This document shows, piece by piece, positions 6,477-31,646 of a stretch of DNA of 32,000 nt. Position 1 is the first letter of the stretch. Every line of letters starts with the position of its first letter. Both the position numbers and the translations under genes were made by a program. This DNA comes from Lachnospiraceae bacterium (lineage in GTDB: Bacteria > Bacteroidota > Bacteroidia > Bacteroidales > UBA932), in assembly GCA_963604455.1 (NCBI GenBank), contig CAVCRL010000009.1, positions 1,817 to 33,816 on the forward strand, in the 5' to 3' direction. The notes beneath the pieces are model-generated. The model searched no databases. It had not been told where the DNA came from and was given only the letters and a program-made list of their open reading frames with translations.

Positions 6477-6494
6477 AGGCCTCCCGATTTACAT

Positions 6495-7829
6495 TTAGAG
6501 TCTTGCCTGAAGAGCCTTGCCCTGCTCCTCGTAGCCTGGCTTGCCAAGAAGAGCGAACATATTCTTCTTGTAGGCCTCGACTCCCGGCTGGTTGAACGGA
6601 TTCACGCCAAGCACATAGGCGCTGACACCGCAGGCGAACTCGAAGAAGTAGAACAGACCGCCAAGATTGAAAGCGTTGATCTTCTCGATGGAGACTTCAA
6701 GCTGAGGAACGCCGCCGTCGATGTGGGCGAGTTTCGTTCCGAGCTGGGCCATAGCGTTGCAATGCTCAACGTGCTGTCCGGCGAGATAGTTGAGCTGGTC
6801 AAGATTCTGCTCGTCGCTTCCGATCACGACCTCGCGGTTGCTCTTCTCGATGTTGACCACAGTCTCGAACACGATCCTGTCGCCGTCCTGGATGAACTGT
6901 CCCATAGAATGGAGGTCGGTGGTGAAGTTCACGGAAGCCGGGAATATTCCCTTGAGATCCTTGCCCTCGGACTCGCCGTAAAGCTGCTTCCACCACTCTC
7001 CAAGGTACTGGAACTTAGGATTGTAAGCCACCAGAATCTCGACTTTCTTTCCAAGTTTTGAATATAGGAGGTTCCTCATCGCGGCGTACTGCACGGCAGG
7101 GTTCTCCTCTCCTTTGACAGCAAGAGCCTTCTCCATCTCAACGGCTCCGGCAAGCATCTCACGTACATCGAATCCGGCGAGAACGATAGGCAGGAGTCCG
7201 ACAGGAGTGAGTACGGAGAAACGGCCTCCGACATTGTCAGGAACGACAAATGTCTTGTAACCTTCCTGTGTGGAAAGGGTCTTGAGGGCTCCCTTGTGGG
7301 CATCGGTGATGGCAACGATCCTCTCGGAGGCGTCCTTATAATTCTTCTCGATGTGCTCTTTCACGATTCTGAAAGCGACAGCCGGCTCGGTGGTGGTTCC
7401 GGACTTGGAGATCACGACAGTGGCGACATTCCTCTCGGCCACGAGATCCATCAGTTCAGCGAGATATTCCTCGGAAAGGTTGTTTCCGGCGAACACTACC
7501 TCAGGAGCGTCCTTCGCTCCGCTGAGCTGCTTGGCGAAATTGTGGGAAAGGGCCTCGATGGCGCAGCGGGCTCCAAGGTAGGATCCTCCGATACCGATCA
7601 CCACGACAAGATTCACACCTTTGGCCTTCCAATCGTCACGGATGGCCTCGCACTCCTTGATAAGCGAGTCAGGTGTCTGTGACGGCAGATGCTTCCAGCC
7701 CAGGAAATCGTTGCCGGCTCCAGTCTCGCTTTCAAGGACATCAAAAGCCTGCAGAGCCTTGCCGACATATTCCTTGTAGTCAGCATCATTCACAAAAGAG
7801 GAGCATCCTCCCAAATTCACTTTGACCAT
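6495..7829 (-). CDS. pgi: Glucose-6-phosphate isomerase
   Basis: Bacteroides-type short PGI with GNDFLGWKHLP, IGIGGSYLGARC, ISKSGTTTEP and GGRFSVLT motifs. The likely ATG is at 7829 (MVKVNLGG...); the track's upstream extension to 7886 seems unnecessary. Confidence 0.9.
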   Translation of the reverse strand: MVKVNLGGCSSFVNDADYKEYVGKALQAFDVLESETGAGNDFLGWKHLPSQTPDSLIKECEAIRDDWKAKGVNLVVVIGIGGSYLGARCAIEALSHNFAKQLSGAKDAPEVVFAGNNLSEEYLAELMDLVAERNVATVVISKSGTTTEPAVAFRIVKEHIEKNYKDASERIVAITDAHKGALKTLSTQEGYKTFVVPDNVGGRFSVLTPVGLLPIVLAGFDVREMLAGAVEMEKALAVKGEENPAVQYAAMRNLLYSKLGKKVEILVAYNPKFQYLGEWWKQLYGESEGKDLKGIFPASVNFTTDLHSMGQFIQDGDRIVFETVVNIEKSNREVVIGSDEQNLDQLNYLAGQHVEHCNAMAQLGTKLAHIDGGVPQLEVSIEKINAFNLGGLFYFFEFACGVSAYVLGVNPFNQPGVEAYKKNMFALLGKPGYEEQGKALQARL

Positions 7830-7939
7830 ATTCTTCAAAATTAAGGTTAAACGTTCGTCTGAAGCGACCTTGCGCGGCCACTTCATATACAGTCTGCAAA
7901 AATAACCATTTTCGGCTAAAAATCAAGCGGGTAGGAAGG

Positions 7940-7998
7940 GGTTTTGCTTTCCGGTTTGCTTTCGGTTTGCTTTCGGTTTGCTTTCGGTTTTGCTTTCC
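7940..7998. repeat. Tandem repeat of ~5 units of 11-13 nt (GGTTTGCTTTC core)
   Basis: The sequence reads ggttttgctttcc / ggtttgctttc x3 / ggttttgctttcc. It lies in the non-coding gap between pgi and the five-gene operon. Confidence 0.85.
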
Positions 7999-8080
7999 GA
8001 AGGAAGCGCTATGCGGGGAATATGATCCAGTCGAAGTCGATTCGCCTCACGAAGGAAGCGCTATGCGGGAAATATGATCC
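7998..8080. repeat. Two copies of a 31-nt direct repeat, 52-nt period, one mismatch
   Basis: cgaaggaagcgctatgcggGgaatatgatcc (7998-8028) and cgaaggaagcgctatgcggAaatatgatcc (8050-8080) abut the tandem repeat. Confidence 0.85.
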
Positions 8081-8480
8081 TGTGGGGAATCCGTACTTTG
8101 ATATCGCTGTACTGATCACAGCGCTATCATCTGGCCACCTGACCTGACTAATGCACGGTATTTAGCGTTGATTGCCAAGTTAATCATTGTCAATGCGTTA
8201 CAAGATACTGGTAGTCAAAACGGAAGGCCAACGTTTCACAACTAATTGATAGTCAGTCGGTGATGCTCCACAGTTTTATAATCAATGTTTTATGGAATCG
8301 TACGCAACTCTGGCTTCACAATTGAAATCAAAGGGATTTCCAGTCATCACGGCGAATCAACAACCAACCGGACTGACCTCACATTTATGTACACTTGAAG
8401 GAGCTTTTCAAATTTATATAAAAGAGGATGTTCTCTTCTCCAGCAATATAAGCCCTTCATTTGTCTAGATGATATAGACT

Positions 8481-9464
8481 TTACCTTTTGAACTTGTCCA
8501 GATTCGCCTTCCAGTCCGCCTCAAAAGACGGGACCGTGGTGGAGAAATTTTCTTTGAAAGAGGCTGGTATGCCCTTGCCATACAAGGTCTTGAGAAAAGA
8601 TTTCACTCCCTCTACCCTATAGAGATCTTCCATATGACAGAAAATGGACTGACCTCCCTGATAGTTTTCAAACACGTAGCGGAACTGCCTGGCGCTGAAA
8701 TCGCAGTCCGAGCGCATCATCCTTATCTCGTCTTCCGAGAAAGAAGGCTTTCTGCCGGGCAGAGAGGTGTACTCAGCGATTCCCTCGTAACACCACATCG
8801 GAAGGTCAACATACTGGTTGTAGTCTATCGAAGCGAAAAAACAATAGTGCGTCAACTCGTGCCAAAGCACATTCTGGGTGTAGTCATCAGAGGAAAACGC
8901 GAATCTGCCATTGAGGGCGATGGCGCGAAGATAATATCCAGACGGAGATATTTCGGATATTGTTATCCCTGCCGTGGTGCTGAAATCATCTCTCCCGGGA
9001 CAAAACTCGGTCATCAACTCATTGAAAGATTTCTGGTCGACCGTCAAATATACCGGGACCTTGCGTCCGTTCATATCAGCTGGATAATAATACTTCCCGA
9101 TTATATCCTCCAAGCGAGGAATAGCCTGTCCTGCAATCGTTTGGCACTTCAGAGCCTTTTTAGTCAATGACTCAGGAAAGTAAAAGATGAAATTGTCATC
9201 CTCCAGTGTTTTCAATCCTGATTCAGGATCACGGCCAAAATCATCGCCGTTATCCCACGGAGCAGGCCTCGGGAAAGGATTGAACCGGGACAAAAGGTCA
9301 TCCAGTCCACCACTGAAAGAATTTATCCAATCAATGGTTTCCTGAGGAACTTCCGCATAGAGAAGCGGTTTCTGGTCTTTTCCCTTGTCGTATATTCTTA
9401 TCAGGGCTAACGCCATCATCACGAACACGAGCAACACGCCCGCGACTGAACCCATACGTCTCAT
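8481..9464 (-). CDS. Membrane-anchored zinc metallopeptidase-like protein (HExxH + downstream Glu, MA-clan / Peptidase_MA_2-like)
   Basis: 327 aa. It has an N-terminal hydrophobic anchor (VAGVLLVFVMMALALIRIY). HELTH is encoded at 8847-8861 (residues 202-206), followed ~21 aa later by WCYEGIAEY, the HExxH...EG.AEY gluzincin arrangement. The ATG lies 1 nt after the upstream gene's stop. Confidence 0.6.
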   Translation of the reverse strand: MRRMGSVAGVLLVFVMMALALIRIYDKGKDQKPLLYAEVPQETIDWINSFSGGLDDLLSRFNPFPRPAPWDNGDDFGRDPESGLKTLEDDNFIFYFPESLTKKALKCQTIAGQAIPRLEDIIGKYYYPADMNGRKVPVYLTVDQKSFNELMTEFCPGRDDFSTTAGITISEISPSGYYLRAIALNGRFAFSSDDYTQNVLWHELTHYCFFASIDYNQYVDLPMWCYEGIAEYTSLPGRKPSFSEDEIRMMRSDCDFSARQFRYVFENYQGGQSIFCHMEDLYRVEGVKSFLKTLYGKGIPASFKENFSTTVPSFEADWKANLDKFKR

Positions 9465-9465
9465 A

Positions 9466-11250
9466 CTAATTCAAGAATATTATGTCCTCAACAGCCTCTT
9501 TCGTGGTGTTGCCAAGGTCCCCGATCCGGAACCCGTCACCAGTGGTTTCACAGAAGAAGTACATATGACCATCCTTGGTGACCAAAGACAGATCAGCCAT
9601 TGACACCAAATCGGAAGACTCTTTGCTTTTGAACGCCACAGCGATCGCGGCGTGGTTTTGTGTCAAGATGTATGCGGTCTTGTACCCGGCCTCACGGAAC
9701 AGCACAGCGGCAAGAACAGCCTTGCAGTCACAATCCCCACGGCCGTCAAACATCGTCTCGTCGGGGAAACGGGCATAATCCCTCGGATTGCCTATCTCCG
9801 GACATTTTTCATCATATTCATACCTGATGTTCGGCATCTGGACAAAGTCAAGGATGAACTGCATCCGCTCAAGCTCGCTCAAACCTTGCGTCCTTGATGC
9901 CTTGTCAATATATTCAAGTACCTTGTGGACCCTTCCATTCTTTTTGCAGTCAGCGAAAAGTTCCTCCGCATTGGCCTTATGCGCCCTGTTCGGATAAAGC
10001 CTGAACGGATTGGAAGCCCGCAAGTCCGCGATCCTCTCAAGGTTGAAAGTGAGGGTAAGATTTCCTTTCAGTTTATGATACAAAGAATCCAGGTCCCAAG
10101 AATATGTCCGCTCAACCTTCCCATCATCAGTATCATCCAGGATCGGGACTTCTTCCTCGTCGTCATCATCCCAGTCCGGCAAGTGATGCTCCTCCTCGTC
10201 ATCCGCATAAGACAGCGCCCAAGGCTCCTTGGTTATGTACCTCTTGTTGACCCAGACTCCTATCAATATCGCCGCCTGAAGAGGGACGAAGTCGCTTCCA
10301 TAGATGAATATAGACACGAGAAGCGCAGCGGATGAAGCTATGACTATCCAGTTGTTCAGCCCGCCAACGCCGGTGTTACGGTCAATCAGCATCAGAAAAT
10401 CATCAAAAGCCTTTCCTTCGAGAGACGCTTCGATCTTCACCTGACGAAGTATCGCCCAGACGGCGAAGTACACGGCCAGCAGCATGGTCGTGAAGCCAAT
10501 CTGCTCACCAAGAGCGGGGAATGAAGCCTTTCCCATCCCTGTCAGGAAGAAAACACAATAGACAATTGAGAAAAGCACCGATGCCGGAAGCGCGGTGTCT
10601 TTCCAAGTCAACCTTTCAGCCAAGGCATCCTCGCTGGCCGGCTTTGGCTGGCGATCCTTGTACAACAGCAGAAACCCTCCCGCACGCGCCGTGACGGAAT
10701 ATTTATTCGGCTTGACTTTTCCCAGCCGCCCTGTCTCGATCACCTTTCCGACAAGGCGGTCGGACGCCGCGGCCGAATCTCCATCCTCGCTGGCAAGAGG
10801 AGGACAGGAATACACATACGAATGCCTCCTCAGCCACAACTCGTACCATATTCCCGAGCCATTGATTCCCGGACGTCCTTTCGCGTCAGTGATGTAGCCC
10901 AGACGCAGGCCGGACTCCCCATAGATGTTGCCGGACAGATCGACCCACCCCTCCTTGCGGACCTCATTTGACAAGTCTGAAGCGGAAGGGTCTTTCCTCA
11001 GGTTGATGAGAGCCAGACCTTTCTCCACATTGGAATTGCCCTGGTAGCGGTTTGCCGGCGGTTGATTGTAATCGTGAAAGACATAAGCGCCAGATGAGAC
11101 GTTGAAAACGACGTCTCCAAAGGTATGGAAGCAACCATCCTCGCCACAATAGGATGTCTTCGTCCTCCTTTTCAGGAGACACACCAACACATACACCGTA
11201 TAAATGACCAACAGGACAACAAGCAGCAGCGCGATCCTTACAAATACCAT
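9466..11250 (-). CDS. Polytopic membrane protein with a C-terminal transglutaminase-like (papain-fold) domain
   Basis: 594 aa, organised as follows:
- an N-terminal TM helix;
- a ~200-aa soluble region;
- a cluster of TM helices at residues ~220-335;
- an extremely acidic linker (DDEEEHHLPDWDDDDEEEVPILDDTDDG);
- FPDETMFDGRGDCDCKAVLAAVLFREAGYKTAYIL...NHAAIAVAF...FFCETTGDG, resembling the transglutaminase-core Cys...His...Asp/Glu pattern. CDC is encoded at 9724-9732. Confidence 0.55.
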   Translation of the reverse strand: MVFVRIALLLVVLLVIYTVYVLVCLLKRRTKTSYCGEDGCFHTFGDVVFNVSSGAYVFHDYNQPPANRYQGNSNVEKGLALINLRKDPSASDLSNEVRKEGWVDLSGNIYGESGLRLGYITDAKGRPGINGSGIWYELWLRRHSYVYSCPPLASEDGDSAAASDRLVGKVIETGRLGKVKPNKYSVTARAGGFLLLYKDRQPKPASEDALAERLTWKDTALPASVLFSIVYCVFFLTGMGKASFPALGEQIGFTTMLLAVYFAVWAILRQVKIEASLEGKAFDDFLMLIDRNTGVGGLNNWIVIASSAALLVSIFIYGSDFVPLQAAILIGVWVNKRYITKEPWALSYADDEEEHHLPDWDDDDEEEVPILDDTDDGKVERTYSWDLDSLYHKLKGNLTLTFNLERIADLRASNPFRLYPNRAHKANAEELFADCKKNGRVHKVLEYIDKASRTQGLSELERMQFILDFVQMPNIRYEYDEKCPEIGNPRDYARFPDETMFDGRGDCDCKAVLAAVLFREAGYKTAYILTQNHAAIAVAFKSKESSDLVSMADLSLVTKDGHMYFFCETTGDGFRIGDLGNTTKEAVEDIIFLN

Positions 11251-11253
11251 AGA

Positions 11254-13683
11254 CTACCCTCCTATCGATTCATCAAGTTCATCCATTTCTGCCTTGGATA
11301 TTCCCAAAGGCACTCCGGCGAGTGAATATGCCAAGTCTCTTCGCCTGTAGAATCCGTAGTACAACGAAAGTTTGTCCGCAAATGACAAGGCGGGGAGCGG
11401 ATCAAGCGGACAATTGCAGACAAGACGCGACTTGATGCCTTCATCAAGTTTCTGCCAGCAAGTAAGCAGGGCGTATTCCGGTGCCGCATCATCTGTGACC
11501 GCATTGGTGTTTCCGAACACCCTCGGAACAATCGAACTCCTTAGTACCGGCGTGTTACCCGACGGCACGGAGAACAACATACCGTTCACCCCGGCCATCT
11601 TCTCAAAAGGAGCAACATTGACATCATCGTCAAGGATGTCCAACATCCGGCCGATGCTGTCGGCCGTGTGGATGTGAAGCTTCGGGGCAAACAACCGGCC
11701 AAGGACAGCGACCAGATCATCCGCATTTGCGGCAGGCGTTCCTCCGCCAGACAAGTCCGCGGCGTCCAGAATCTCCGACTGTGTGAAAGATGATTTCAGA
11801 AGCGCAAGCAGATCTTCTTTTCCCAATTCCGACAAACGTCTCTCACCTTCCCTCAAATGAATCTCAGCTTCCGAAACCGAATTATCATCAATCAGTCTCT
11901 CGCCACAGAACGTTCCTCCGATCAGTGGCTGGTTGAACATCGTTTCCGGAATCACTTCCTTGCCGGACTTCACATCCGGGACAGTCAGTTTGTCACGGAA
12001 CAACGCCAGATAGCCAAGCTGGGCGTCACACTCCTTCACGAGCTCATCGTAGAAGGCACCTTGCTGATCCATCAGGAATTTGGACAGACGCTTGTTGACA
12101 GCAAGCAGAGTCGAGGCAAGCAACCTGTATTTCAATCGCAAGATGCGTTTGAAGTGACGGCGCAGCCTGATGAAGAACTCTATTGTCAATGGAAGGAAAA
12201 ACAGCACCGGAATCCACAGCCACTCGACCGTAGCGAGTCCTCCAAGGTTAATCACCTTTGGAGACACCACACGCAAAACCGGAATGACGGTAAAGACAAG
12301 CAAGATTCCAAGAAGGAAGCACCGGACGAGCAGGCTCAGGACTACAGGTTCCCTTTTGAGGTTCTTGCACAGCCTCTCCATAATCTTGGATGAGGTGTTC
12401 TCCTCCGCGTCAGCCTGACATTTATCATATTCATTCCTCAAATACTCCGGAACGGGAACAATCTCATCGTCTCTCAGGATGACTCCGGCGCGTTTTCTGT
12501 TCAGATACTCCTTCGCCGAATTGAAGACGGACTCCAACTGGGCTATCGTAGGGTACTTGGAAGCCGAGTCGATGAGCGATTTCCGGTAGAGGCTGCGCAA
12601 CAGAGTCTTGAAGCTTTCCGCCGCCTTTTCCCGGTTCTTCCGTATGATACCTGAAAATCTGGCGAGCAGGGCATAGGAAAGGCTCTGCATATAGCGGGTC
12701 AGCCGCGCGGGCGTGAACTTAAGATATTTCCAGTAATAGACCGGGAACAATTCCGCCCTGAACAAATCCCAGACGGGATGTGGATCCGCCTCGCCGTCCA
12801 TCTTCTTCAAATCAACGTCCAGACTGCCACATTCTTCCCGAAGCCGCACGGAAACGGCATCTGCATTGACAGCATCCTCTTCCAGCACCTCACGCACAAT
12901 TCTCCCGGCATATTCATCATCCTTGTTGTCAGCGTCCTTGAATTCCGCAACGAGTTTGTCCAGAATATGTTTAAGCTCAATGCCTCGGTGCCGTTCGCTG
13001 CTGTAGAAAATCGAAGCCGCACCCAGTGAGAATGTTCCGCTGTCCTTTCCTATCCTGTCAAAAAGCCTTTCACATCCTGCACTGACAAAGAACAGGTTCG
13101 TGAGAATCTGGAACAGCAATTCCGTCCGTTGTCCCTCGTCCAGACCGGCGTAAAACCGTGCTCCTTTATACTGCACATCCTGATACGCCACCACACGGTT
13201 GAAATGCTTCGGGCCAAGCTGTTCGTTGAGCATATTCAAATCTTCCAGCATCATAGCGGCCTTCTCGCGTTCCGGCCTGCTGTCCAATTGGTTGATGGTG
13301 CTCGGGATGTATAGTATTCCTGTGATCTCCACACCGAGGTTGGCGTGGTCGGAGATGATCCTTGGGAGATTGTCACGCAAAAGGCCGGGAAGCGGAGCAA
13401 ACACCTCCTGCGTCAGCCTCTCATTCGCTGCGCCAAGGATAACTATCTGGAAATTACCGACTCTATATCCTGCCTTATTGAACGCATTGCAGCAATCCCT
13501 GCCTTCGGCGACCAACTCATCCACAAGAGCCTTGCACGAGGATGCATCCGACACGGCCCTGTCGGACACGTGGAAATATCGCCAGAACGGTTTCAAAGAC
13601 TCCCCTGTGGAATCAAGGAGGCTCCGCAGTTTCCCTGACGAAACCGCAGAGCTTCCCAGATCTATTATCCAAATCGGGAGCAT
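11254..13683 (-). CDS. 809-aa two-TM protein; the N-terminal domain looks like a GTP-motif-degenerate paralogue of the adjacent tubulin-like domain
   Basis: ATG start 1 nt after the tubulin-like gene's stop. Two central TM helices are present (VVLSLLVRCFLLGILLVFTVIPVL; WLWIPVLFFLPLTIEFFI). N-terminal segments parallel the neighbouring protein:
- IWIIDLGSSAVSS vs IFIGLGGSGVNTV;
- RYFHVSDR vs RFLFVDTD;
- FQIVILGAANERLT vs YWVVASCNGGTGSG;
- LGVEITGILYIPS vs PKVGLVLYMPR. Confidence 0.6.
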   Translation of the reverse strand: MLPIWIIDLGSSAVSSGKLRSLLDSTGESLKPFWRYFHVSDRAVSDASSCKALVDELVAEGRDCCNAFNKAGYRVGNFQIVILGAANERLTQEVFAPLPGLLRDNLPRIISDHANLGVEITGILYIPSTINQLDSRPEREKAAMMLEDLNMLNEQLGPKHFNRVVAYQDVQYKGARFYAGLDEGQRTELLFQILTNLFFVSAGCERLFDRIGKDSGTFSLGAASIFYSSERHRGIELKHILDKLVAEFKDADNKDDEYAGRIVREVLEEDAVNADAVSVRLREECGSLDVDLKKMDGEADPHPVWDLFRAELFPVYYWKYLKFTPARLTRYMQSLSYALLARFSGIIRKNREKAAESFKTLLRSLYRKSLIDSASKYPTIAQLESVFNSAKEYLNRKRAGVILRDDEIVPVPEYLRNEYDKCQADAEENTSSKIMERLCKNLKREPVVLSLLVRCFLLGILLVFTVIPVLRVVSPKVINLGGLATVEWLWIPVLFFLPLTIEFFIRLRRHFKRILRLKYRLLASTLLAVNKRLSKFLMDQQGAFYDELVKECDAQLGYLALFRDKLTVPDVKSGKEVIPETMFNQPLIGGTFCGERLIDDNSVSEAEIHLREGERRLSELGKEDLLALLKSSFTQSEILDAADLSGGGTPAANADDLVAVLGRLFAPKLHIHTADSIGRMLDILDDDVNVAPFEKMAGVNGMLFSVPSGNTPVLRSSIVPRVFGNTNAVTDDAAPEYALLTCWQKLDEGIKSRLVCNCPLDPLPALSFADKLSLYYGFYRRRDLAYSLAGVPLGISKAEMDELDESIGG

Positions 13684-13684
13684 A

Positions 13685-16600
13685 CTAAGCCAGATACTTG
13701 TTTGACAGGAATTTAGAGACAGTCTCCAACCGTTCGTTCAGGACACGGAGAATGTCGCCGATGGTCTCCTTCTCCATCTTTCCGGCACCCTCCCATTTTG
13801 CGTTAAGGTCGTTCTTCAGGGACCGGACCGCTTCCTGATACTTCTGCCGCAGAAGATCGGAGTCAAGGAAATTGACGTTCCTCACCAGATCAGAGATCAA
13901 GTTGGAGAATCGGCCTGTCGAATAATGTTCTGAAAAGCCGGCGAACAATTCAGTCATCATATGCTCAGGCCTGTCAATGGCAACGGTGTGGTAGAACACC
14001 CTGTCCCCGTCAGTCACCTTAAGCTCAATCTTCTCATTGTCCACGAGAGACAGTGACGCGGAAGTAGCGAACTTCGCGATCATTCCATCGAATATCACCG
14101 GTGTGTCGGCATAGTGTCCGGCGTTGTATGTTTCCGTTCCTTTGCGCATAAAGTGAGAGAATGTCTCTCCAAGCTGGTTCATAAGCAGATACTTTGTGAA
14201 CACGATGAGTTCCGGCTTGATCTCCTTAGGCAGGACGATGTTGTCGGCATTTCCTCCAGAAGCGGCGAACGCCTGATGGAAATGGTAGAACACCTTGTTC
14301 TGGCACCTGTCATATTCATTCTTGATGCTTTGGTACATATCATAGTACTCGAAGGAGAGTCCGATTTTCGTGACGATCTTGTACATCACAGACGGATTCT
14401 GACTGTCAAGCATCTTCGTCTTTCCCGCACTGGAGGCCTCAAGGAACACATCCTTGACCACTCCTTCCGGACCGACGCAGAACGCCCTGTCGATGACACG
14501 CCCGGTTCTCTTCGCTTTGCTGTACGGGAAGAACACGGCTGGCTGGGTCTTCTGCCTGATGGTATGACGGGCCTCATTGTTCAGTTCGGAGAAGAAATTG
14601 GCGAGAGTCTTCTCGTACCACTGCTTGCTCACCGTCTCATTCTGATGCAGCAACGCTTTCATTGTGCCGACAGTGTAGTCAAGAAGATCCTCGACGACTC
14701 GTTTGAAGTCCGTCTTGCTTGTGTTGGTGAACAAATGGCTTTTATCATCAACAACGTATTTCTCCTGAATCATCCGCTCGCCATAGAGGCTGATCATCTG
14801 ACTGAACATTCCCTCCAGAGAGCAGGACATATCTCCGTTCCGAAGTGGCTTGTACCCCTCACCAGGGACATAGTCTGAGGTGTGGCCGATGATCAGGCCA
14901 TACCACTCGGAGAATTGGTTGCCATCCTCTATCCAGCCATATCCATCCACATATTCAGTGATATCCGGCACGAACACAGAGGTCACATCCAGCTTTGTGG
15001 CGTAGAAGGACCTCGCCAGCGAGGTGTAGCCTTGCGCCGCACCCTTGTCACCATTCAACACGGCGGTCGCCTCGGCGACGAGTTTGCGGATATGCGTGAT
15101 GATACGGTCGATTATGCCACGGTCGCCGTAGGCAAGCTCGCGGATCATATCAAAGGCCTCTTCCGCCAGAATCACCTTGACGCTTGCCCTGACCCAATCC
15201 CTAAGACGTTCGAAGAAGATGGACACATCATTGGAATTGTTTCCTGTAAGCCTCTCCTTGAGAGTGATCTGAATGGCATTCCTGTACAGCTCATCCAACT
15301 CCCCTTCTATGCTGTCACGGTTCTCCACCATAGCCTTCCGGCTTGGCCGTATCCCCTCAAGCACAGCGGTGTTGGTGTCAGTGGTATAAGCCAGATAGAG
15401 TTCCTGGCAGTACGAATCCAGATCCTGTAGTATAGACATCACATACTGGAGACCGTGCTTACGGCAATTGTCCTCCGTCCAGTCCCACAGTTCCCGCTCC
15501 ATTGCCTTGCGGGTCTTGTCCTTTTCCTCCCCGCGACGCTTGATGGACTTCTCGATGGAGTCTATGACACTTCTGGCCTCCTCAATGGACACGTTGGAAG
15601 GCAACTTGCTGACGACCTTGTTGTCGCTGTCCCTGATGACATTGTCCGGCATATCCTCATCCAGCATCTCCACTGCCATCGCGTTTATGGTACGGAAATA
15701 TGAATCCTTCCCGGCGCCGGACTCAAACAGGGAACTCTTGATGATGGTGTCAAACACGGAGCGCATCAGCTTGTCTCGCTCCTCAAACGAATCAACCGGA
15801 GCGCCAATGATGCCGTAGCGCAGCATCTCGTACCTCACACGCAACGACACATAGTTCTCGAACTGCTCATCCGGTTTGCGCAAGGCCATATATCCCATAG
15901 GCACAAGGAAGTTTGCCGCATCAGTGGCCACCTCGCCATCCTCATAGTTGTCAAGGAACGACTTGAAACCTCCGGCACCTTTGCCACTATGAATATAAAA
16001 CATCAACTCGGCGGTGTTGGAATACATCTTCTCAATGTCACCCATATTGCTGTTCCGATCAGTATGATAGTCAATAGGGATGCAGAACTCGAACGGGCGG
16101 TATGGCATCTTATCATCGAAAAGTGTGTAATCGTCCACCATAGCCATCCTATGGAACATCAAGTTCTTCGGACTCTCCTTCGCCCATTTCTGGAAAGCCT
16201 CGATCTCCTTGAACACCGCATAGGCATTGCGAGGGTATTTTTCATTGTCGGAGTTCATATTCATATAAATCCGAGGCATATACAGGACAAGTCCGACTTT
16301 CGGGTTGCCTTTGTCCACGTGGGTACGGTGTATCATATTCACCAAATACAACACATCCAGGACAGTACCGCTGCCGGTTCCACCGTTGCAACTGGCCACG
16401 ACCCAATAATGAATCACATTCCTCGCGCTGTCAATCTCATCCTGGTTCAGCTCATTGATGCAAGTCTGAAGCTTGTCGGTGAACTTGTCCACCTTGCGTC
16501 CAAACGCGATGCGGGACTTGAGGCGAAGGGCGCCGGCTCCAAACGAAAGGTCACGGTTGTCCATACTCTCGGCGACCATTGCCGGACAAGCCTCGATAAT

Positions 16601-16921
16601 GCGCCGGTTGATCTTAAGCTCAGGCGCGTACTTCGCCTCATTGTAGCTGATGTACGGATTTATGTCCCCCAGATTCAGCAACTCCACGTCATTGATGAAA
16701 TCTATCCTTCCTCCTTCGTACAGGTTGCGGTAAGTCTCATTCGCCTCCGCCACATCACGGCTGTCCGTGTCCACAAAAAGGAAGCGGTAAGTCTCGTTCA
16801 TCACCTGAAGACGGCTCTTCATTTCCGTCCCCCTCGTGCGTTCATAGACCTTGTACTTGATTTGGGAAACGGTGTTGACTCCGGAACCACCCAAACCGAT
16901 GAAGATGTGTTTCTCTGCCAT
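13685..16921 (-). CDS. Giant (1078 aa) tubulin/FtsZ-superfamily GTPase-like protein (Tubulin_2 / FtsZ-like type)
   Basis: The N-terminal IFIGLGGSGVNTV (GLGGSG encoded at 16880-16897) resembles the T1 loop. VVASCNGGTGSGTVLDVLYLV (NGGTGSG encoded at 16367-16387) is the tubulin signature [SAG]GGTG[SAT]G of the T4 loop. An ~800-aa, largely helical C-terminal extension of unknown function follows. Confidence 0.75.
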   Translation of the reverse strand: MAEKHIFIGLGGSGVNTVSQIKYKVYERTRGTEMKSRLQVMNETYRFLFVDTDSRDVAEANETYRNLYEGGRIDFINDVELLNLGDINPYISYNEAKYAPELKINRRIIEACPAMVAESMDNRDLSFGAGALRLKSRIAFGRKVDKFTDKLQTCINELNQDEIDSARNVIHYWVVASCNGGTGSGTVLDVLYLVNMIHRTHVDKGNPKVGLVLYMPRIYMNMNSDNEKYPRNAYAVFKEIEAFQKWAKESPKNLMFHRMAMVDDYTLFDDKMPYRPFEFCIPIDYHTDRNSNMGDIEKMYSNTAELMFYIHSGKGAGGFKSFLDNYEDGEVATDAANFLVPMGYMALRKPDEQFENYVSLRVRYEMLRYGIIGAPVDSFEERDKLMRSVFDTIIKSSLFESGAGKDSYFRTINAMAVEMLDEDMPDNVIRDSDNKVVSKLPSNVSIEEARSVIDSIEKSIKRRGEEKDKTRKAMERELWDWTEDNCRKHGLQYVMSILQDLDSYCQELYLAYTTDTNTAVLEGIRPSRKAMVENRDSIEGELDELYRNAIQITLKERLTGNNSNDVSIFFERLRDWVRASVKVILAEEAFDMIRELAYGDRGIIDRIITHIRKLVAEATAVLNGDKGAAQGYTSLARSFYATKLDVTSVFVPDITEYVDGYGWIEDGNQFSEWYGLIIGHTSDYVPGEGYKPLRNGDMSCSLEGMFSQMISLYGERMIQEKYVVDDKSHLFTNTSKTDFKRVVEDLLDYTVGTMKALLHQNETVSKQWYEKTLANFFSELNNEARHTIRQKTQPAVFFPYSKAKRTGRVIDRAFCVGPEGVVKDVFLEASSAGKTKMLDSQNPSVMYKIVTKIGLSFEYYDMYQSIKNEYDRCQNKVFYHFHQAFAASGGNADNIVLPKEIKPELIVFTKYLLMNQLGETFSHFMRKGTETYNAGHYADTPVIFDGMIAKFATSASLSLVDNEKIELKVTDGDRVFYHTVAIDRPEHMMTELFAGFSEHYSTGRFSNLISDLVRNVNFLDSDLLRQKYQEAVRSLKNDLNAKWEGAGKMEKETIGDILRVLNERLETVSKFLSNKYLA

Positions 16922-16941
16922 ATTGCTATTCTGTAAATATT

Positions 16942-18495
16942 TTACTTTATCCAGCGAATCTTATATTTCTCTATCGTGATGGGGGCGTGCCTCGCGATAA
17001 CAGGATGCTGATGGATGCCATATTTCACTCCGCTCTTGAATGACGAGCCCTTGGTCAAGGTAGCCACATAATCAGGATGTTTCATCGGACGGACAAACGG
17101 ATTGTAGCGTCTCACGTCAATCCGGATTGCCCAGTCACTGTCCGGCACGGCCAAGAAAGAGGCACCCTTGCCCAAATCCACCTTATCCAGATTGTTCGCC
17201 TTTTTCTTTTCCGTAACGGGGGTACCTTCTTTTGAGACTTCAAACTTGCCGTTGATGCGATAAAAATCAGACCGATTACGTAAGAAGGCCTGGATCACCA
17301 TCATTATGTACAGGATGACAAGCACGGCAATCAGACAACAAAGCCATAAAGGGAGCGGATAACAGAACACGGTACGGCTCACCGGAGCGGCAGCACGCAT
17401 CGTAGGAGCCGCAAAGCCCAATTTGCCCAGTTCAGCCTCATAGGGGACATCAAACGAGGCTTCCGCAATAACATCACCGGCAAATTTCCGAAACGATGGG
17501 CAAAGCACGCTGTTCCCCTGATGGCGGAACTTTCCTGCAGCCAGTTTCACTTCCTCCTCGTTCGCATTCTTAGGTAACTTTGATTTGAATTCGTACCCTT
17601 CGGCCGTCGAGCCGACCGAATCCACACGCAAGACATCATACACAGGATTGGGCCTCCAGGACACTTTTATGTCAAGATTTCCATCAACATCCATAGAAGG
17701 TGCTATCGAAAAACCGTCCGGTTCAATCTTGCCTGCGACCAGAGCATAGAACTTGTCCAAAAGGATAGCGTTCTTCCGCTGTGTGAACCAGTCAGACAGA
17801 GCTTTGCCGTTGGCAATCGGAACGTGGCTGAAGCCGAACCGTTTCGGGAACACGCTGCGGACCCTCTCAAGGTCTCGTCCGCTTCCGGGAAGCTGGAGAG
17901 CGAACACATAGACGTCGTTCCCCGCCTGCTCAGTCGCGAACCTCCGAGCCACGCCATCCCAGTCCTCGCGTCCCCTGCGGGCCGCCGAAGGGTCGTGAAG
18001 GAAGTCCGTGATGATGAAGACAAACTTCAAACGGCTGCGGTCTATCTGTTTCATATCATCCGCAAGATAGTGCAGCATATTGTCAAGGTCTGTCCATTTG
18101 AAGTATTTCTCTTTCTCGTAGGCTGTCGTTGGCGTGTCATAGATATGTCCCGCATAGTCGATCAGGTTTGCGATGGTCTCCGCGCTTACCTTTCCCGCGC
18201 TTCCCACCTCATTTACCGCCTCTCCGCCGAACTTGATGATGGACACATAATCCCCCTGCTGAAGCGAGCGGAAAAACTCACCCAACGCCGGGACCACCGT
18301 CTCCTTGAACCTCCCCATCGTACCCGACACATCAATCGCGAAGATATAATCCGCCCTCTGCCCCTCAAGTTCCTTCCCGAACTTCTCCATAAGCATAGGA
18401 TAATCAGCCCTCAAGGCCTCCATTCCCCCAACCTGAGAGAACAGCGGTGCCGCAACGAGCGTCAATGTGATCAGTAGAGTAGTTATTTTCTTCAT
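16942..18495 (-). CDS. Secreted, single-pass membrane-anchored von Willebrand factor A (vWA) domain protein
   Basis: 517 aa, organised as follows:
- a signal peptide (MKKITTLLITLTLVAAPLFSQ);
- a vWA MIDAS-type motif, YIFAIDVSGTMG (DVSGT encoded at 18319-18333), with a later FVFIITDFLHD strand;
- a strongly hydrophobic TM segment (FCYPLPLWLCCLIAVLVILYIMMVIQAF) at residues ~377-405;
- a ~110-aa beta-rich C-terminal tail. Confidence 0.75.
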   Translation of the reverse strand: MKKITTLLITLTLVAAPLFSQVGGMEALRADYPMLMEKFGKELEGQRADYIFAIDVSGTMGRFKETVVPALGEFFRSLQQGDYVSIIKFGGEAVNEVGSAGKVSAETIANLIDYAGHIYDTPTTAYEKEKYFKWTDLDNMLHYLADDMKQIDRSRLKFVFIITDFLHDPSAARRGREDWDGVARRFATEQAGNDVYVFALQLPGSGRDLERVRSVFPKRFGFSHVPIANGKALSDWFTQRKNAILLDKFYALVAGKIEPDGFSIAPSMDVDGNLDIKVSWRPNPVYDVLRVDSVGSTAEGYEFKSKLPKNANEEEVKLAAGKFRHQGNSVLCPSFRKFAGDVIAEASFDVPYEAELGKLGFAAPTMRAAAPVSRTVFCYPLPLWLCCLIAVLVILYIMMVIQAFLRNRSDFYRINGKFEVSKEGTPVTEKKKANNLDKVDLGKGASFLAVPDSDWAIRIDVRRYNPFVRPMKHPDYVATLTKGSSFKSGVKYGIHQHPVIARHAPITIEKYKIRWIK

Positions 18496-18515
18496 AAGAG
18501 TGGTTCTAATTGCTA

Positions 18516-18523
18516 CAAAGATA
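18516..18523 (-). promoter_or_regulatory. Candidate -7 box (TATCTTTG) upstream of the vWA gene
   Basis: The reverse complement of 18516-18523 is TATCTTTG (TAnnTTTG), 21-28 nt upstream of the vWA ATG (18495). No clean -33 TTTG is seen at the expected spacing. Confidence 0.3.
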
Positions 18524-18598
18524 GGAAAAATAATCTATTCTGTCATTGTTGTTTTCCATTGTTTTCACATTAATATCACATTCCCCATAGGTTGGAAA

Positions 18599-18977
18599 GT
18601 CTCAGTACCGCTCTCGCAGTAGACTAAATGAACGAAATGAAGAAGATTCAGGATCAGAGTGTCATCGAGTCTCAATACCGCTCTCGCAGTAGACTAAATG
18701 AACAATGCCAATCAAAACCGAACGCTCGGCGGCTGCACGTCTCAATACCGCTCTCGCAGTAGACTAAATGAACACACAGGAATTCCCCGCAAAACTGCTG
18801 CTAATGTCTCAATACCGCTCTCGCAGTAGACTAAATGAACACGTATCATGTCAGCGCAGATGAACGGAATCTTGTCTCAATACCGCTCTCGCAGTAGACT
18901 AAATGAACTCGACGGCGCAACTTGCAATGTTGAGGGAAGCGTGTCTCAATACCGCTCTCGCAGTAGACTAAATGAAC
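18599..18977 (-). CRISPR. CRISPR array of 6 x 35-nt repeats and 5 spacers (35, 35, 32, 33, 34 nt)
   Basis: Repeats occupy 18599-18633, 18669-18703, 18739-18773, 18806-18840, 18874-18908 and 18943-18977, reading gtctcaataccgctctcgcagtagactaaatgaac on the plus strand. Only the first (cas-distal) repeat carries a substitution (A7G), consistent with the leader lying on the cas2 side. On the minus strand the repeat reads GTTCATTTAGTCTACTGCGAGAGCGGTATTGAGAC. It ends in ATTGAGAC, which resembles the ATTGAAA(C/G) 8-nt crRNA 5'-handle, so minus-strand transcription is inferred. Confidence 0.95.
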
Positions 18978-19454: not shown

Positions 19455-19751
19455 TCAGCAAATAGCCACATTGTCCAAATTACGCCGCTTGTCAGGCAAT
19501 CGTACTATTTTCGTGTAGCAATTCATACACAATGAGTAATAAATCACACTATCTTCCTTGAGGTCAATTATTTCGGCAACTTTAGCCTCAAGATCCTCAA
19601 ATTGCCTGTCAGTCATCATACACTCAAAAACACTGAAGTTCGCGCGCACACCATACCTTTCGAGAAGTTTTCCCACCTTCTCGCGCCGTTTGTTGTCTGC
19701 TACATCATAGGCAACAACACAAAAATTCTTCTTTGCACGCATACTCACCAT
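19455..19751 (-). CDS. cas2: CRISPR-associated endoribonuclease Cas2
   Basis: 98 aa. The N-terminal beta-strand with the catalytic Asp (FCVVAYDVADNKRREKVGKLLERYG...VNFSVFEC) is typical of Cas2. The gene overlaps the RT-cas1 stop by 7 nt. Confidence 0.9.
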   Translation of the reverse strand: MVSMRAKKNFCVVAYDVADNKRREKVGKLLERYGVRANFSVFECMMTDRQFEDLEAKVAEIIDLKEDSVIYYSLCMNCYTKIVRLPDKRRNLDNVAIC

Positions 19752-22024
19752 TTTGCTATATACGGCCTATACATCGCTCCATTATCAATATAATTCGCGA
19801 TTTCCAGGACTTGAGTGTTTATTATATCTGTCAACCGTGTTTCGACACCACGATATTTCTCATAACGGTTGAGTCGCTCAAAAATATTCTTTACCAATAG
19901 TTTCCGTGTCGAAGCATCCAACTTTCCATCGGACATCGCCAATGGCTCTTTCTTTTGGATAAGCGAGATCACGACCCGTTCTACGGCTTGGGCACGGAAT
20001 AACTCAATGATGTCATAGACGAAAGTAGGCTTACCCTGTTGCGGAATATGAATAACACTTATGGTAGGGTTCAACCTCCTCCAAAGCAGAGCCTGCCACA
20101 CACGAGGATAAATCATCGCATAGCCATAATTCAACATACAATTCATCAAATCAGTGGCACCTTGTCTGGTTCTCTTCTCAAAGTCAACATCATCATCCGA
20201 AATCAGTTCCCTTATGTAAGCCCAATACAACTCGGCGCAATGAGCCTCCTGCGCCATCATCTTGGCGCGATACTCCGGGTTATCGACGCAGTCCATAACC
20301 TTAGCCAAACATTCCGCTATGCGCGGAAGAGCATCTTCATAAACATCACAAAGTTTCTTCGAGGTCGTCTTGTGATACTTATGGAAATACTTCATCAGGT
20401 TCAACTGATTCTTCATCTTTCCTTGCAATATCTTTGCAGCCAAACGACTCTGACAGGCAAGCGTCATTGAAGATTGCTTCTGCCACAACGAAGTGCTTAT
20501 GTGTCTCTGCGTCATCAGGCTGCCTTGGTGCATTCCGGACCAGGAGAAAAAGTGAATTCCAATCTTGTGATTCACACAATATTTGACAAGGTTACTGGAG
20601 ATAGTCACGCCCTCGCACATAACACAGATGCGCTCCAAATTAGAAATCGAAGGGATCTTCTTTTTCTTTCCAGCCACTCTCATCACCAATCCATATTCAC
20701 TTGCCCCTAAATATGTTCCGGGAGTTGTTATCACTAGATCCGTTGTCTCACCCTCTTTCTTCCTATATTCAAGTTTCTTCTGCTGAATAGCCTTCTTTAC
20801 TTCTTTGTCCCCATCAGACTTCGCTTTATTACTAGCCTTCAAGTAGGAATAATGTTGAAGCAACCCATCCCTCAAAGACTCTGCCCTAAGAACATTATCC
20901 GGAGAAATGAAGCTGATCTCCTTCAAAGCATCACGTAATACCCACTTGTTTGGAATCTGGGAATATTGCTCCGTCACAACATCACAAAGATGCCCTATCA
21001 GGATTTTGTCCAAATAAGCCAGATCATCTTTGGTGACCAAAGGAACATAGTACCTCAATATCGCCGAAATGCTCTCTTTACCTTTCTTATCAAAGCCTTG
21101 CCCGTCCCATTCAAGTTGACGGATGCGCTGCCTCAACTCATCTTTTTTCTTTTCTGACAAATAGATATGACGATTGTCAATCATCACTCCAAGGAATTCA
21201 AATCCATCCTTAATCAATGAGACAGACGGAGGATTCAGCGTCAATTTGAGACGTTCAGTCAGAAAAGCCGAGCCTTCAGTCAGCCAAGCTTCGGCATGCT
21301 CCTGAGATTCGCAACAGATTATGAAGTCATCGGCATAACGGACATATTGGCTCGTTCTGGACAGCACATATTGGTCAAACGGCGTGAGATAATAATTTGC
21401 CAGCAATGGTGAAAGCACAGCTCCCTGAGGGACACCGACGGTCACGTCTTGCCAATGTGAGGATTTGTTGACAACTCCCATTTTCACACACAATTGGAGC
21501 AGCGACAGCATATCCTCATCAGCAATCAGAGGTGTCAAACGCTTAAACAACAATGAATGATCAATGTTGTCAAAATAGTTATCGATGTCAAGGCGCAATA
21601 AGTACGGTGTCTTTTTGCTCTGGCAACAGTACCTTGCGGCTTTAACCGCTTTTGTGTGTCCCTTGCCGGGACGATAGCCATAACTATTCGGAACAAACAC
21701 TTTCTCGAATCTCGGTTCCACCAAAATTTTCACCGCCTGCTGGACTACCTTGTCACGCACGCTCAGCAGTCCCAAACGACGAACTTCATTCGATTTTTTA
21801 GGAATATTCACCCGCAAATACGGCTCAGGACGCCACCTCCGCTGACGCAACTCCTCAAGCAACTCCGTCAAATAGGTGCCAAGCCGCTCTTCAAACTGCA
21901 GCAACGACACTCCATCCACTCCACCCGCAGAGCCTTTCTGTTTGACAATTTTCCACGCGTCAAACAGAAGAGACTGCGAGCAGAGTCTGGAATAAAGAGG
22001 TGGTCTGGTTGAGCCTGATGCCAT
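19745..22024 (-). CDS. cas1: Reverse transcriptase-Cas1 fusion protein
   Basis: The N-terminal half has group-II-intron-like RT motifs (RLDIDNYFDNIDH; GVPQGAVLSPLLAN; YVRYADDFIICC). The C-terminal half is Cas1 (VMCEGVTISSNLVKYCVNHKIGIHFFSWSG; NCMLNYGYAMIY; SVIHIPQQGKPTFVYDIIELFR). The first ATG is at 22024; the track start at 22054 is a TTG overlapping cmr6. Confidence 0.9.
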   Translation of the reverse strand: MASGSTRPPLYSRLCSQSLLFDAWKIVKQKGSAGGVDGVSLLQFEERLGTYLTELLEELRQRRWRPEPYLRVNIPKKSNEVRRLGLLSVRDKVVQQAVKILVEPRFEKVFVPNSYGYRPGKGHTKAVKAARYCCQSKKTPYLLRLDIDNYFDNIDHSLLFKRLTPLIADEDMLSLLQLCVKMGVVNKSSHWQDVTVGVPQGAVLSPLLANYYLTPFDQYVLSRTSQYVRYADDFIICCESQEHAEAWLTEGSAFLTERLKLTLNPPSVSLIKDGFEFLGVMIDNRHIYLSEKKKDELRQRIRQLEWDGQGFDKKGKESISAILRYYVPLVTKDDLAYLDKILIGHLCDVVTEQYSQIPNKWVLRDALKEISFISPDNVLRAESLRDGLLQHYSYLKASNKAKSDGDKEVKKAIQQKKLEYRKKEGETTDLVITTPGTYLGASEYGLVMRVAGKKKKIPSISNLERICVMCEGVTISSNLVKYCVNHKIGIHFFSWSGMHQGSLMTQRHISTSLWQKQSSMTLACQSRLAAKILQGKMKNQLNLMKYFHKYHKTTSKKLCDVYEDALPRIAECLAKVMDCVDNPEYRAKMMAQEAHCAELYWAYIRELISDDDVDFEKRTRQGATDLMNCMLNYGYAMIYPRVWQALLWRRLNPTISVIHIPQQGKPTFVYDIIELFRAQAVERVVISLIQKKEPLAMSDGKLDASTRKLLVKNIFERLNRYEKYRGVETRLTDIINTQVLEIANYIDNGAMYRPYIAKW

Positions 22025-22035
22025 TATATCACGTT

Positions 22036-23965: not shown

Positions 23966-23983
23966 AATCTGACATTTTATTCG

Positions 23984-26480: not shown

Positions 26481-26481
26481 A

Positions 26482-27786: not shown

Positions 27787-27806
27787 CTTGAATCTCGGTT
27801 AAAATC

Positions 27807-30743: not shown

Positions 30744-30775
30744 AACTTTTGGGTTTATATTTTCAGAATATTTTC

Positions 30776-31558: not shown

Positions 31559-31646
31559 AATTAGTCGCGCCGGCTCCTGCCCGCCAGCCACGAATGGTAT
31601 CGTTTGAGCGCAAGCTATAATTGGCCCAGTTTATTTCACAGGGATT

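Follow-up and report, generated by a model that had tools for sequence, protein, structure and literature searches.

A five-gene Bacteroidales variant of the FtsZl1 (Tubulin_2)-vWA operons beside a type III-B CRISPR locus

FtsZl1, a group of tubulin/FtsZ-like proteins, was defined by Makarova and Koonin in 2010 (PMC2875224), together with operons that combine FtsZl1 and vWA genes and for which a role in membrane remodelling was predicted. The partners reported for FtsZl1 comprise vWA, OmpA-like and P-loop GTPase proteins, kinases, uncharacterised membrane families and the families B1-B9; the T6-H7 region of FtsZl1 was not identifiable in that study, and the only true Bacteroides locus in it (B. 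caccae) consists of three genes, ending in one for a COG4870 cysteine protease. Subsequently, GTPase-centric systems with tubulin and vWA proteins were predicted to be conflict systems by Kaur, Burroughs, Iyer and Aravind in 2020 (PMC7159879), while "Tubulin + other protein + vWa" (UAS-129), "Tubulin system" (UAS-130) and "vWA + Tubulin" (UAS-149) were listed as CRISPR-associated candidates by Altae-Tran et al. in 2023 (PMC10910872). Here we describe an operon of five genes (g1 to g5 in order of transcription) in a 32,000-nucleotide (nt) stretch of a Bacteroidales genome (assembly GCA_963604455.1, contig CAVCRL010000009.1, positions 1,817 to 33,816; this whole stretch is called the window below), which encodes a vWA protein, a tubulin-like GTPase, a candidate pseudo-tubulin, a transglutaminase-like membrane protein and a metallopeptidase.

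Among the FtsZl1 (Tubulin_2)-vWA operons, that of the window is a Bacteroidales-type variant with five genes. It has in common with the others a Tubulin_2 protein of about 1000-1100 amino acids (aa) with a helical middle and a distinct C-terminal domain, a vWA gene in the same operon (immediately upstream in the window) whose product carries a metal ion-dependent adhesion site (MIDAS) and often a signal peptide or transmembrane (TM) segment, and further lineage-specific membrane proteins. On the other hand, a tubulin-like TM protein without GTP motifs, a transglutaminase-fold protein and a gluzincin are not among the partner families listed in PMC2875224. The membrane-remodelling prediction of 2010 for such operons had been cited in the initial annotation of the window, in agreement with what that paper states. 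The GAP1-N2 systems of PMC7159879 resemble the operon in having one or two tubulin proteins fused to a coiled-coil or helical domain, a vWA protein whose vWA domain is held outside the cell by a TM anchor, peptidase or TM effectors, and a logic of NTP-dependent assembly with a vWA co-factor. These systems, known from Firmicutes and Actinobacteria, contain a TRAFAC GAP1-N2 GTPase and FNIII-repeat proteins (HSP70 in a related class), whereas none of the five proteins of the window matched a P-loop GTPase, FNIII or HSP70. With the candidates of PMC10910872 the window shares vWA and tubulin genes beside CRISPR, and the tubulin genes of these candidates (990-1045 aa) are similar to g2 in size. UAS-129, UAS-130 and UAS-149, to which the listing assigns neither a function nor an architecture beyond the label, were compared by their names and coordinates only, a level at which subfamily membership is not confirmed.

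Two other kinds of system show a similar combination of parts. The operons that join a MoxR AAA+ protein, a vWA/DUF58 protein and a membrane transglutaminase of the TgpA type, and the Bacteroides Bat operon, also encode an NTPase together with a vWA protein and a polytopic transglutaminase-like protein facing the envelope, although the NTPase is a MoxR AAA+ ATPase there and a tubulin-fold GTPase in the window. Bacterial dynamin-like proteins (BDLP, DynA, LeoABC), which often work as two paralogues together and act in membrane repair and phage defence, likewise combine a G-domain with a long helical stalk and a membrane-inserting hairpin; their G-domain, however, has the dynamin fold and that of the window the tubulin/FtsZ fold, and the similarities found by Foldseek are weak (E 0.03-0.14, root-mean-square deviation (rmsd) 26-50 A).

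The assignment to FtsZl1 is carried by g2, whose product is a tubulin-fold protein of this type with intact GTP loops and a long helical stalk. It matches Tubulin_2 (PF13809) over residues 6-366 with an E value of 2.5e-37 (129 bits against a cut-off of 27 bits); no Pfam domain besides Tubulin_2 was detected, neither FtsZ_C nor Tubulin_C, and the PDB sequence search returned no solved structure related to it. Glycines G9, G11, G12 and G14 of the T1 loop are present in all 69 g2 sequences compared, and the T4 signature GGTGSG in 67-69 of the 69. In the AlphaFold2 (AF2) model (predicted local distance difference test (pLDDT) score 89.7), a GTPase domain (residues ~1-400) is followed by long helices (~400-645) and a C-terminus of mixed alpha/beta and helical structure. 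Foldseek searches of the PDB with this model matched CetZ (E 9.9e-6), beta-tubulin and TubZ with a probability of 1.00, and since these matches span 370-450 aligned columns, the entire two-domain tubulin/FtsZ fold appears to be present in the predicted structure. The T1 and T4 signatures that had been read in the 1078-aa protein from its sequence thus agree with both the family match and the fold match. A conserved S321...D324-N325 follows the putative core helix in the g2 family, and its assignment to T7 would need coordinates.

The second largest protein, encoded by g3, had been described as a two-TM protein with a degenerate copy of the GTPase domain of g2. It begins with a Rossmann-like N-terminal domain (residues ~1-250) and continues through a long helical stalk and a TM hairpin to an alpha/beta domain at the C-terminus; no Pfam match was obtained for it, nor a PDB match with its family profile. 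In the AF2 model (pLDDT 86) the N-terminal domain resembles gamma-tubulin, FtsZ and tubulin according to Foldseek (probability 0.97-0.99, E 0.03-0.2, TM-score 0.29-0.38). Alignment of the g3 and g2 families by hhalign gave E values of 0.06-0.11, against 0.13-0.46 for unrelated controls, and paired "ILGAANE" of g3 with the T4 loop of g2 and "ITGILYIPS" with "VGLVLYMPR", in register over T4-S5-H5 and in agreement with the order of strands and helices in the two independent models. When 1.84 billion representatives were searched exhaustively with the profile, 150 members of the g3 family were returned, and a T1 or T4 motif was found in none of the 145 newly returned representatives checked, G84-[DN]-x-x-E88 standing at the position equivalent to T4. 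A sequence-detectable paralogy of g3 to g2 was rejected, as the hhalign values are barely better than those of the controls and the g3 profile yields neither a PDB nor a Tubulin_2 match. Because the evidence is mixed, with the predicted fold in favour and a marginal sequence signal, a pseudo-tubulin without GTP loops is a likely but unproven identity of the N-terminal domain; of the earlier description the two TM segments stand, while the degenerate copy has the backing of the predicted fold only. In Foldseek searches the stalk and hairpin weakly resembled dynamin-like stalks and alpha-pore-forming toxins of the ClyA type (E 0.014-0.2, with poor rmsd), and the likeness to the toxins was set aside as too weak for use.

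In the product of g1, the first gene of the operon, the vWA domain has its MIDAS site intact. An N-terminal signal or anchor segment (residues 4-22) precedes the vWA domain (~51-230), which is followed by a beta-rich middle part, a TM segment (383-401) and a tail of about 115 aa, in line with the signal-peptide vWA protein with one TM anchor that had been proposed. Single-sequence Pfam matches to VWA_2 (E 1.3e-4) and VWA (E 5e-4) both lie under the curated cut-off; the family profile matches the vWA domains of ITIH1 (E 1.1e-3) and alpha2-delta (E 0.044-0.05), and relatives of g1 carry precomputed VWA_2 or VWA_3 matches. The MIDAS residues D55, S57, [ST]59, T135 and D164 are kept in at least 64 of 66 g1 sequences.

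Both remaining genes encode protease-fold proteins. The product of g4 is polytopic, with 4-5 TM segments, an acidic linker and a C-terminal transglutaminase-like domain (residues ~458-594). Its own match to Transglut_core (E 1.5e-4, 22.4 bits) falls 0.6 bit short of the cut-off of 23, and no PDB relative was found by sequence; 15 of 29 family members match DUF553 (best E 1.2e-8) and 12 of 29 match Transglut_core, so that a transglutaminase-like fold is indicated by sequence at the level of the family. The catalytic residues show a different pattern. Cysteine stands at position 507 in 23 of 60 members and at 509 in 33 of 60, with GDSNSKA in many members; H533 is found in 48, C567 in 59 and E/D568 in all 60, and the Cys-His-Asp triad is not conserved as a set. 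The C567-E/D568 pair (nt 9547-9552) is thus almost invariant, though the canonical nucleophile is often lost. The reading of the domain as a Cys/His enzyme therefore holds for the fold and not for a conserved catalytic cysteine, and C509, which had been named for mutation, is replaced by C507 on the basis of motif spacing, neither of the two being conserved in the family. As both cysteines, the histidine and the glutamate are present in the g4 of the window, it is a candidate active enzyme and may be catalytically active, catalysis not being a conserved property of the g4 family.

The product of g5 consists of an N-terminal TM or signal segment (residues 4-22) and a gluzincin-type metallopeptidase domain. 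Single-sequence matches were weak only; the family profile matches the catalytic domain of microbial collagenase M9 (E 8.3e-5), and family members match DUF2268, Peptidase_MA_2 and Peptidase_M9, the second of which had been expected. With H202 and H206 in 29 of 32 members and E203 and E227 in all 32, the protein has an intact HExxH...E zinc peptidase site of the gluzincin type (clan MA), as had been supposed for a membrane-anchored peptidase.

Hydropathy analysis places further membrane segments at residues 449-467 and 483-507 of g3 and at 8-26, 221-239, 250-268 and 301-330 of g4, while none was found in g2, so the predicted membrane insertion of four of the five products stands. By the positive-inside rule, the vWA domain of g1 would be periplasmic, with its one TM helix leading to a cytoplasmic tail, and the large domains of g3 and g4 would be cytoplasmic; the same rule leaves the side of the g5 domain ambiguous.

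The five open reading frames (ORFs), whose coordinates, strand and spacing are identical to those given earlier, form a block on the minus strand (8481-18495) with successive gaps of 20, 1, 3 and 1 nt. Scanning a single genome of each species yielded 77 loci, cited here by L numbers where needed; all are from metagenome-assembled genomes (MAGs) of gut or rumen samples, so that the window comes from an uncultured member of the Bacteroidales. In about 60 of them the vWA, tubulin-like, g3 and g4 genes follow one another in this order on one strand, and g5 was detected in 31 of these. They belong to Paludibacteraceae, Muribaculaceae, Alistipes, Tannerellaceae, Phocaeicola and Parabacteroides, a Fibrobacter and Acidobacteriota, so that the synteny of the four-gene core extends across phyla, as had been anticipated. 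The core proteins diverge fast, and since the same order persists in about 60 independent loci at protein identities of only 23-78% to the window, the grouping of the genes goes beyond chance. No further conserved operon member was found downstream in related loci: the MFS, Endonuclease_NS, UDG and HAD genes that follow were considered and discarded as unrelated neighbours. Upstream of g1 lies a match to TAnnTTTG, which we take to be the Bacteroidetes -7 promoter consensus. In 26 of 62 loci this motif precedes g1 by about 30-105 nt, where 0.04 occurrences are expected per 280 nt of coding sequence, and it stands upstream of g2 to g5 in 0-4% of loci. Scans for sigma-70 promoters and intrinsic terminators stayed at shuffle level, and are uninformative for Bacteroidetes. 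Given a motif upstream of g1 that is nearly absent upstream of g2-g5, the data fit one operon with its own predicted promoter; the single-operon reading gains from the short gaps, the motif at g1 and a synteny that persists down to 23-30% identity. Operon-bearing contigs were also met in MAGs labelled Methanomethylophilaceae and Clostridiales (66-84% g2 identity) and Heimdallarchaeota (27%) (L064, L067, L068). The Methanomethylophilaceae- and Clostridiales-labelled contigs are very probably mis-binned Bacteroidales, and an archaeal origin of the window, raised by one named Methanomethylophilaceae match, was rejected because more than 60 Bacteroidales loci carry the operon.

The operon behaves as a self-contained accessory cassette. 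Beyond the limits given in Table 1, the sequence of the window is unrelated on both sides to that of its closest relatives (L078-L083), and in other relatives the neighbours are a glutamine synthetase gene, genes for sugar nucleotides, a DEAD helicase gene, or AAA/type I restriction genes. Searching with the RT-Cas1 (reverse transcriptase-Cas1 fusion) of the window for related loci yielded 40, about 25 of them with a downstream flank, and g1-g4 were present in none. In six of these loci, however, the final 37-44 codons of g5 (77-86% aa identity) begin within about 25-30 nt of the terminal CRISPR repeat, and in the three compared (L091, L094 and L113) the downstream flank matches that of operon-bearing strains at 96-100% identity. 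This g5 stump is a deletion scar, left by the loss of the whole operon beside the array. Three alleles can thus be recognised at this site within one species group: the operon alone, CRISPR-Cas with a g5 stump, and both together, as in the window. The operon is therefore dispensable, having been deleted in sister strains down to the 3' stump of g5, and the CRISPR locus works without it, with long arrays retained. Each of the six L078-L083 contigs breaks off within about 40-640 nt of the vWA gene on its upstream side, suggesting that a repeat interrupts the assembly at this place; in five of the six (not L083) the last called gene is an ORF of 149-163 aa, the sole copy scanned (L079:31-522) being without a Pfam match.

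Table 1. Coordinates of the operon, its sequence motifs and its CRISPR context in the window (other loci are given by their L numbers)
Feature	Position	Strand	Description
g1	16942-18495	-	517 aa ORF
g2	13685-16921	-	1078 aa ORF
g3	11254-13683	-	809 aa ORF
g4	9466-11250	-	594 aa ORF
g5	8481-9464	-	327 aa ORF
g1 MIDAS motif	18319-18333	-	DVSGT, residues 55-59
g2 T1 loop	16880-16897	-	GLGGSG, residues 9-14
g2 T4 signature	16367-16384	-	GGTGSG, residues 180-185
g3 TM hairpin	12163-12339	-	residues 449-507; tip of two very long helices (445-473 and 484-565)
g4 putative catalytic Cys position	9718-9738	-	GDCDCKA (C507, C509)
g5 zinc-binding motif	8847-8861	-	HELTH, residues 202-206
Putative promoter motif TATCTTTG	18516-18523	-	TAnnTTTG match, 21 nt upstream of the g1 ATG
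Conserved cassette limits	8476-18556	-	87% nucleotide identity to strains with a 93%-identical g2 (L078-L083)
g5 stumps	L094:13640-13836, L091:9178-9303, L107, L111, L113, L114		equivalent to window 8438-8596
CRISPR array	18599-18977	-	six 35-nt repeats (GTTCATTTAGTCTACTGCGAGAGCGGTATTGAGAC); context, outside the operon
Type III-B cas locus	19455-31591	-	Cas2, RT-Cas1 fusion, Cmr6/4/3, short Cas10, Cas6, CorA-like; context

The CRISPR array of the window is transcribed toward g1, and its terminal, degenerate repeat is the g1-proximal one, ending 103 nt before the g1 ATG, so that the distance and strand noted earlier agree with the repeat coordinates. In a Parabacteroides MAG (L020) and in a Phocaeicola clade (L026, L136-138), RT-Cas1 and Cas2 genes are the immediate same-strand neighbours upstream of the vWA gene; the g2 proteins there are 31-32% identical to that of the window and 45% to each other. 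Of the roughly 66 species-level operon loci, 2 have cas genes within 10 kb, and the lineage of the window adds to these; by a rough estimate even two cas-adjacent loci are very unlikely under uniform placement, and a narrow association with RT-Cas1/Cas2 type III-B loci in three deep sublineages is real. A hot spot of insertion shared by accessory modules would explain this adjacency without functional coupling. Several loci show the cas side decaying beside intact operons: in L139-143 the vWA gene follows an array of 27 repeats and a lone cas2 (L139:1-4201) with no RT-cas1, in L146 (349-2773) a reverse transcriptase fragment is followed by a merged cas2-vWA ORF call, and in L144 (755-1378) the upstream neighbour is a lone gene for a CRISPR-type NYN ribonuclease, which is 74% identical to the first gene of the CorA-type III-B loci L118-L127.

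The type III-B locus of the window is complete and resembles the CorA/SAM-AMP class of Bacteroides fragilis (PMC10600005). Its RT-Cas1 has 769 aa and its short Cas10 (470 aa) has palm domains only; three of its ORFs (434, 158 and 271 aa) are without a Pfam match. Exchange of Cas modules is seen when window 19745-28781 is compared with L113, L114 and L112: CorA, orf158 and orf271 are 83-91% identical, whereas the Cas6, Cmr and RT-Cas1 genes between those and the array are 32-50% identical, and the interference and adaptation genes have thus been exchanged inside conserved flanks. The guanine-cytosine (GC) fraction is 0.38-0.47 in the cas locus, 0.48-0.54 in most of the operon and about 0.51-0.56 in the core flank; a value well under that of its neighbours suggests that the cas locus was recently transferred.

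On its other side, the operon is separated from a PGI-like gene by 594 nt of non-coding sequence (7887-8480), the repeat-bearing gap on the core-gene side that had been noticed before. It contains about 4.8 copies of the 11-nt tandem repeat TTTGCTTTCGG at 7943-7997, as well as two 86%-identical copies of a 43-nt direct repeat at 7989-8031 and 8041-8083, and no Rfam family was found in the window, this gap included. As homology to related strains ends at 8438-8476, the gap marks the edge of the cassette. Downstream (4567-7886) follow genes of a sugar-nucleotide pathway, an NTP-transferase, SIS/PGI-like and GHMP-kinase trio. A similar trio lies downstream of the operon in a 55%-identical relative (L003:10465-12910 / L088:18452-20946); order and strand differ between the two and sequence similarity was undetectable at E 1e-5, so the presence of such a trio beside both operons is probably a coincidence.

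With respect to the role of the operon, we tentatively lean towards a conflict or defence-type response that is triggered at the envelope and depends on GTP, a housekeeping cytoskeletal role being less likely. In such a response, the periplasmic vWA domain would bind a ligand on the envelope side or detect envelope damage, and the tail of g1 would pass the signal inward. As a tubulin-like partner, g3 would tether g2 to the inner membrane, perhaps as a heterodimer in the manner of dynamin-like pairs or alpha/beta-tubulin, the former being called to mind by a G-domain, stalk and hairpin divided between an active and an inactive paralogue; g2 would assemble when bound to GTP, and its assembly would deform or perturb the membrane and engage the two protease-fold modules, which could be effectors or maturation and processing factors. 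The response may be of an abortive or threshold kind, as proposed for systems of a vWA protein and an NTPase. The conflict role is favoured on account of the accessory behaviour of the operon, its deletion alleles, its degenerate enzymatic modules and its adjacency to CRISPR. The cassette has sharp borders and differing contexts in close relatives, its core proteins diverge fast, a CRISPR-type NYN gene stands upstream of it in L144, g3 is devoid of GTP loops and g4 of its cysteine in many members; published work adds the conflict prediction for tubulin and vWA systems (PMC7159879), the CRISPR-candidate listing (PMC10910872) and the cysteine protease gene that follows the FtsZl1 gene in B. caccae, a parallel to g4 (PMC2875224). 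Several observations weigh against a defence role. Around 40 dereplicated loci, the 136 flanking ORFs match 144 Pfam families that are mostly housekeeping, with Cas1/RT (2), TIR (2) and PDC-S01 (2) as the defence-type matches; none of the five proteins matched PADLOC-DB v2 at E values up to 0.1; carriage by phages or plasmids was considered and rejected, the system being absent from IMG/VR viral contigs and giving a single weak match among plasmids. Owing to these flanks, the missing PADLOC matches and the absence from IMG/VR, a general enrichment in defence islands is unsupported, and the check with PADLOC that the initial annotation had suggested gave no match for the five proteins, with few defence-type matches in the flanks; its "defence neighbourhood" does not hold as a general statement, but does so for the adjacency to RT-Cas1/Cas2 type III-B loci in the three sublineages. 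The operon moreover looks long resident, as its GC content is close to that of the core flank and that of the cas locus lies apart, and polymerisation, the T7 loop, the pairing of g2 with g3 and the membrane side of g4 and g5 are all things that we infer. No experimental study of such operons or of FtsZl1 was found in the literature searched, which agrees with the statement that no function had been experimentally defined, although the kind of system as such had already been described in 2010, 2020 and 2023.

Some of the same observations suit a machine for membrane remodelling or envelope maintenance without an immune role, the proposal of Makarova and Koonin, a close rival that we consider somewhat less likely than the conflict role. 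The GTPase and its anchored partner would then shape, repair or vesiculate the inner membrane, and the vWA protein and the peptidases would organise or process the envelope. Four of the five products have membrane segments, flanks are mostly of the housekeeping kind, the composition of the operon is near that of the core genome, and the published context analysis predicted the same (PMC2875224); the stalk and hairpin of g3 are weakly like those of dynamin-like proteins (Mgm1, BDLP, MxA), but with Foldseek E values above 0.01 and an rmsd of 22-50 A. A maintenance function sits less well with an operon that is dispensable and deleted in sister strains, that is patchily distributed in variable contexts and that recurs beside CRISPR loci. 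A system for the assembly and processing of adhesins or other cell-surface structures, in which the periplasmic vWA domain would be an adhesive or matrix component processed by g5, cross-linked or trimmed by g4 and positioned by the GTPase, appears improbable. The signal-peptide-like N-terminus and MIDAS-competent vWA domain of g1, the match of the g5 family profile to the catalytic domain of secreted collagenases and the fimbrial (FimA/Mfa2) or BspA-LRR genes near some loci would fit it, but a TM helix keeps g1 in the membrane and its cytoplasmic tail is conserved, the transglutaminase-like domain of g4 is more likely cytoplasmic by the positive-inside rule, g5 is absent from about half of the operons, and no secretion-system genes are linked in the flanks examined. 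Least probable of all, and to our mind very doubtful, is an ancillary module coupled to type III-B or RT-Cas1-Cas2 systems, be it as a membrane effector or as an adaptation-linked factor; a membrane-anchored machine with a tubulin-fold GTPase that would serve as an envelope-level immune effector or sensor, reached by read-through transcription from the array or by a shared trigger, appears equally doubtful. In favour of coupling, cas2 or the array immediately precedes the operon, in the same orientation, in three sublineages with g2 proteins 31-45% identical; further points are an array transcribed toward g1 with no terminator-like site in the 103-nt gap (by a scan that is uninformative for Bacteroidetes) and the listing of UAS-129 as an auxiliary candidate (PMC10910872; subfamily not confirmed). 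Yet the cas genes are within 10 kb in so few operon loci, the RT-Cas1 loci with a downstream flank are without g1-g4, six of them keep long arrays after the deletion, and cas genes decay beside intact operons; furthermore, Pfam and PADLOC searches found no CARF, SAVED or other second-messenger sensor domain in the five proteins, the locus already has a CorA-type effector, and the operon has a promoter motif of its own.

FtsZl1 is the most divergent branch of the tubulin/FtsZ superfamily, and no experiment on it was found from the 15 years since its description. For its study the operon offers a compact and well-delimited unit of five genes with clear mutable GTP loops, MIDAS and zinc site, natural presence/absence alleles, a predicted pseudo-tubulin membrane partner, and an unexpected link to RT-Cas1 type III-B loci that recurs without being obligatory. 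Under either the defence or the remodelling reading the advance is incremental for now. The operon belongs to a kind of system that has been described and does not represent a new one. If the defence reading is true, a tubulin-fold NTPase would join the immune switches represented by STAND, dynamin and MoxR proteins, and if the remodelling reading is true, the operon would be a tubulin-based analogue of bacterial dynamins; should the coupling to CRISPR be true, prokaryotic immunity would for the first time involve a protein of the tubulin superfamily.

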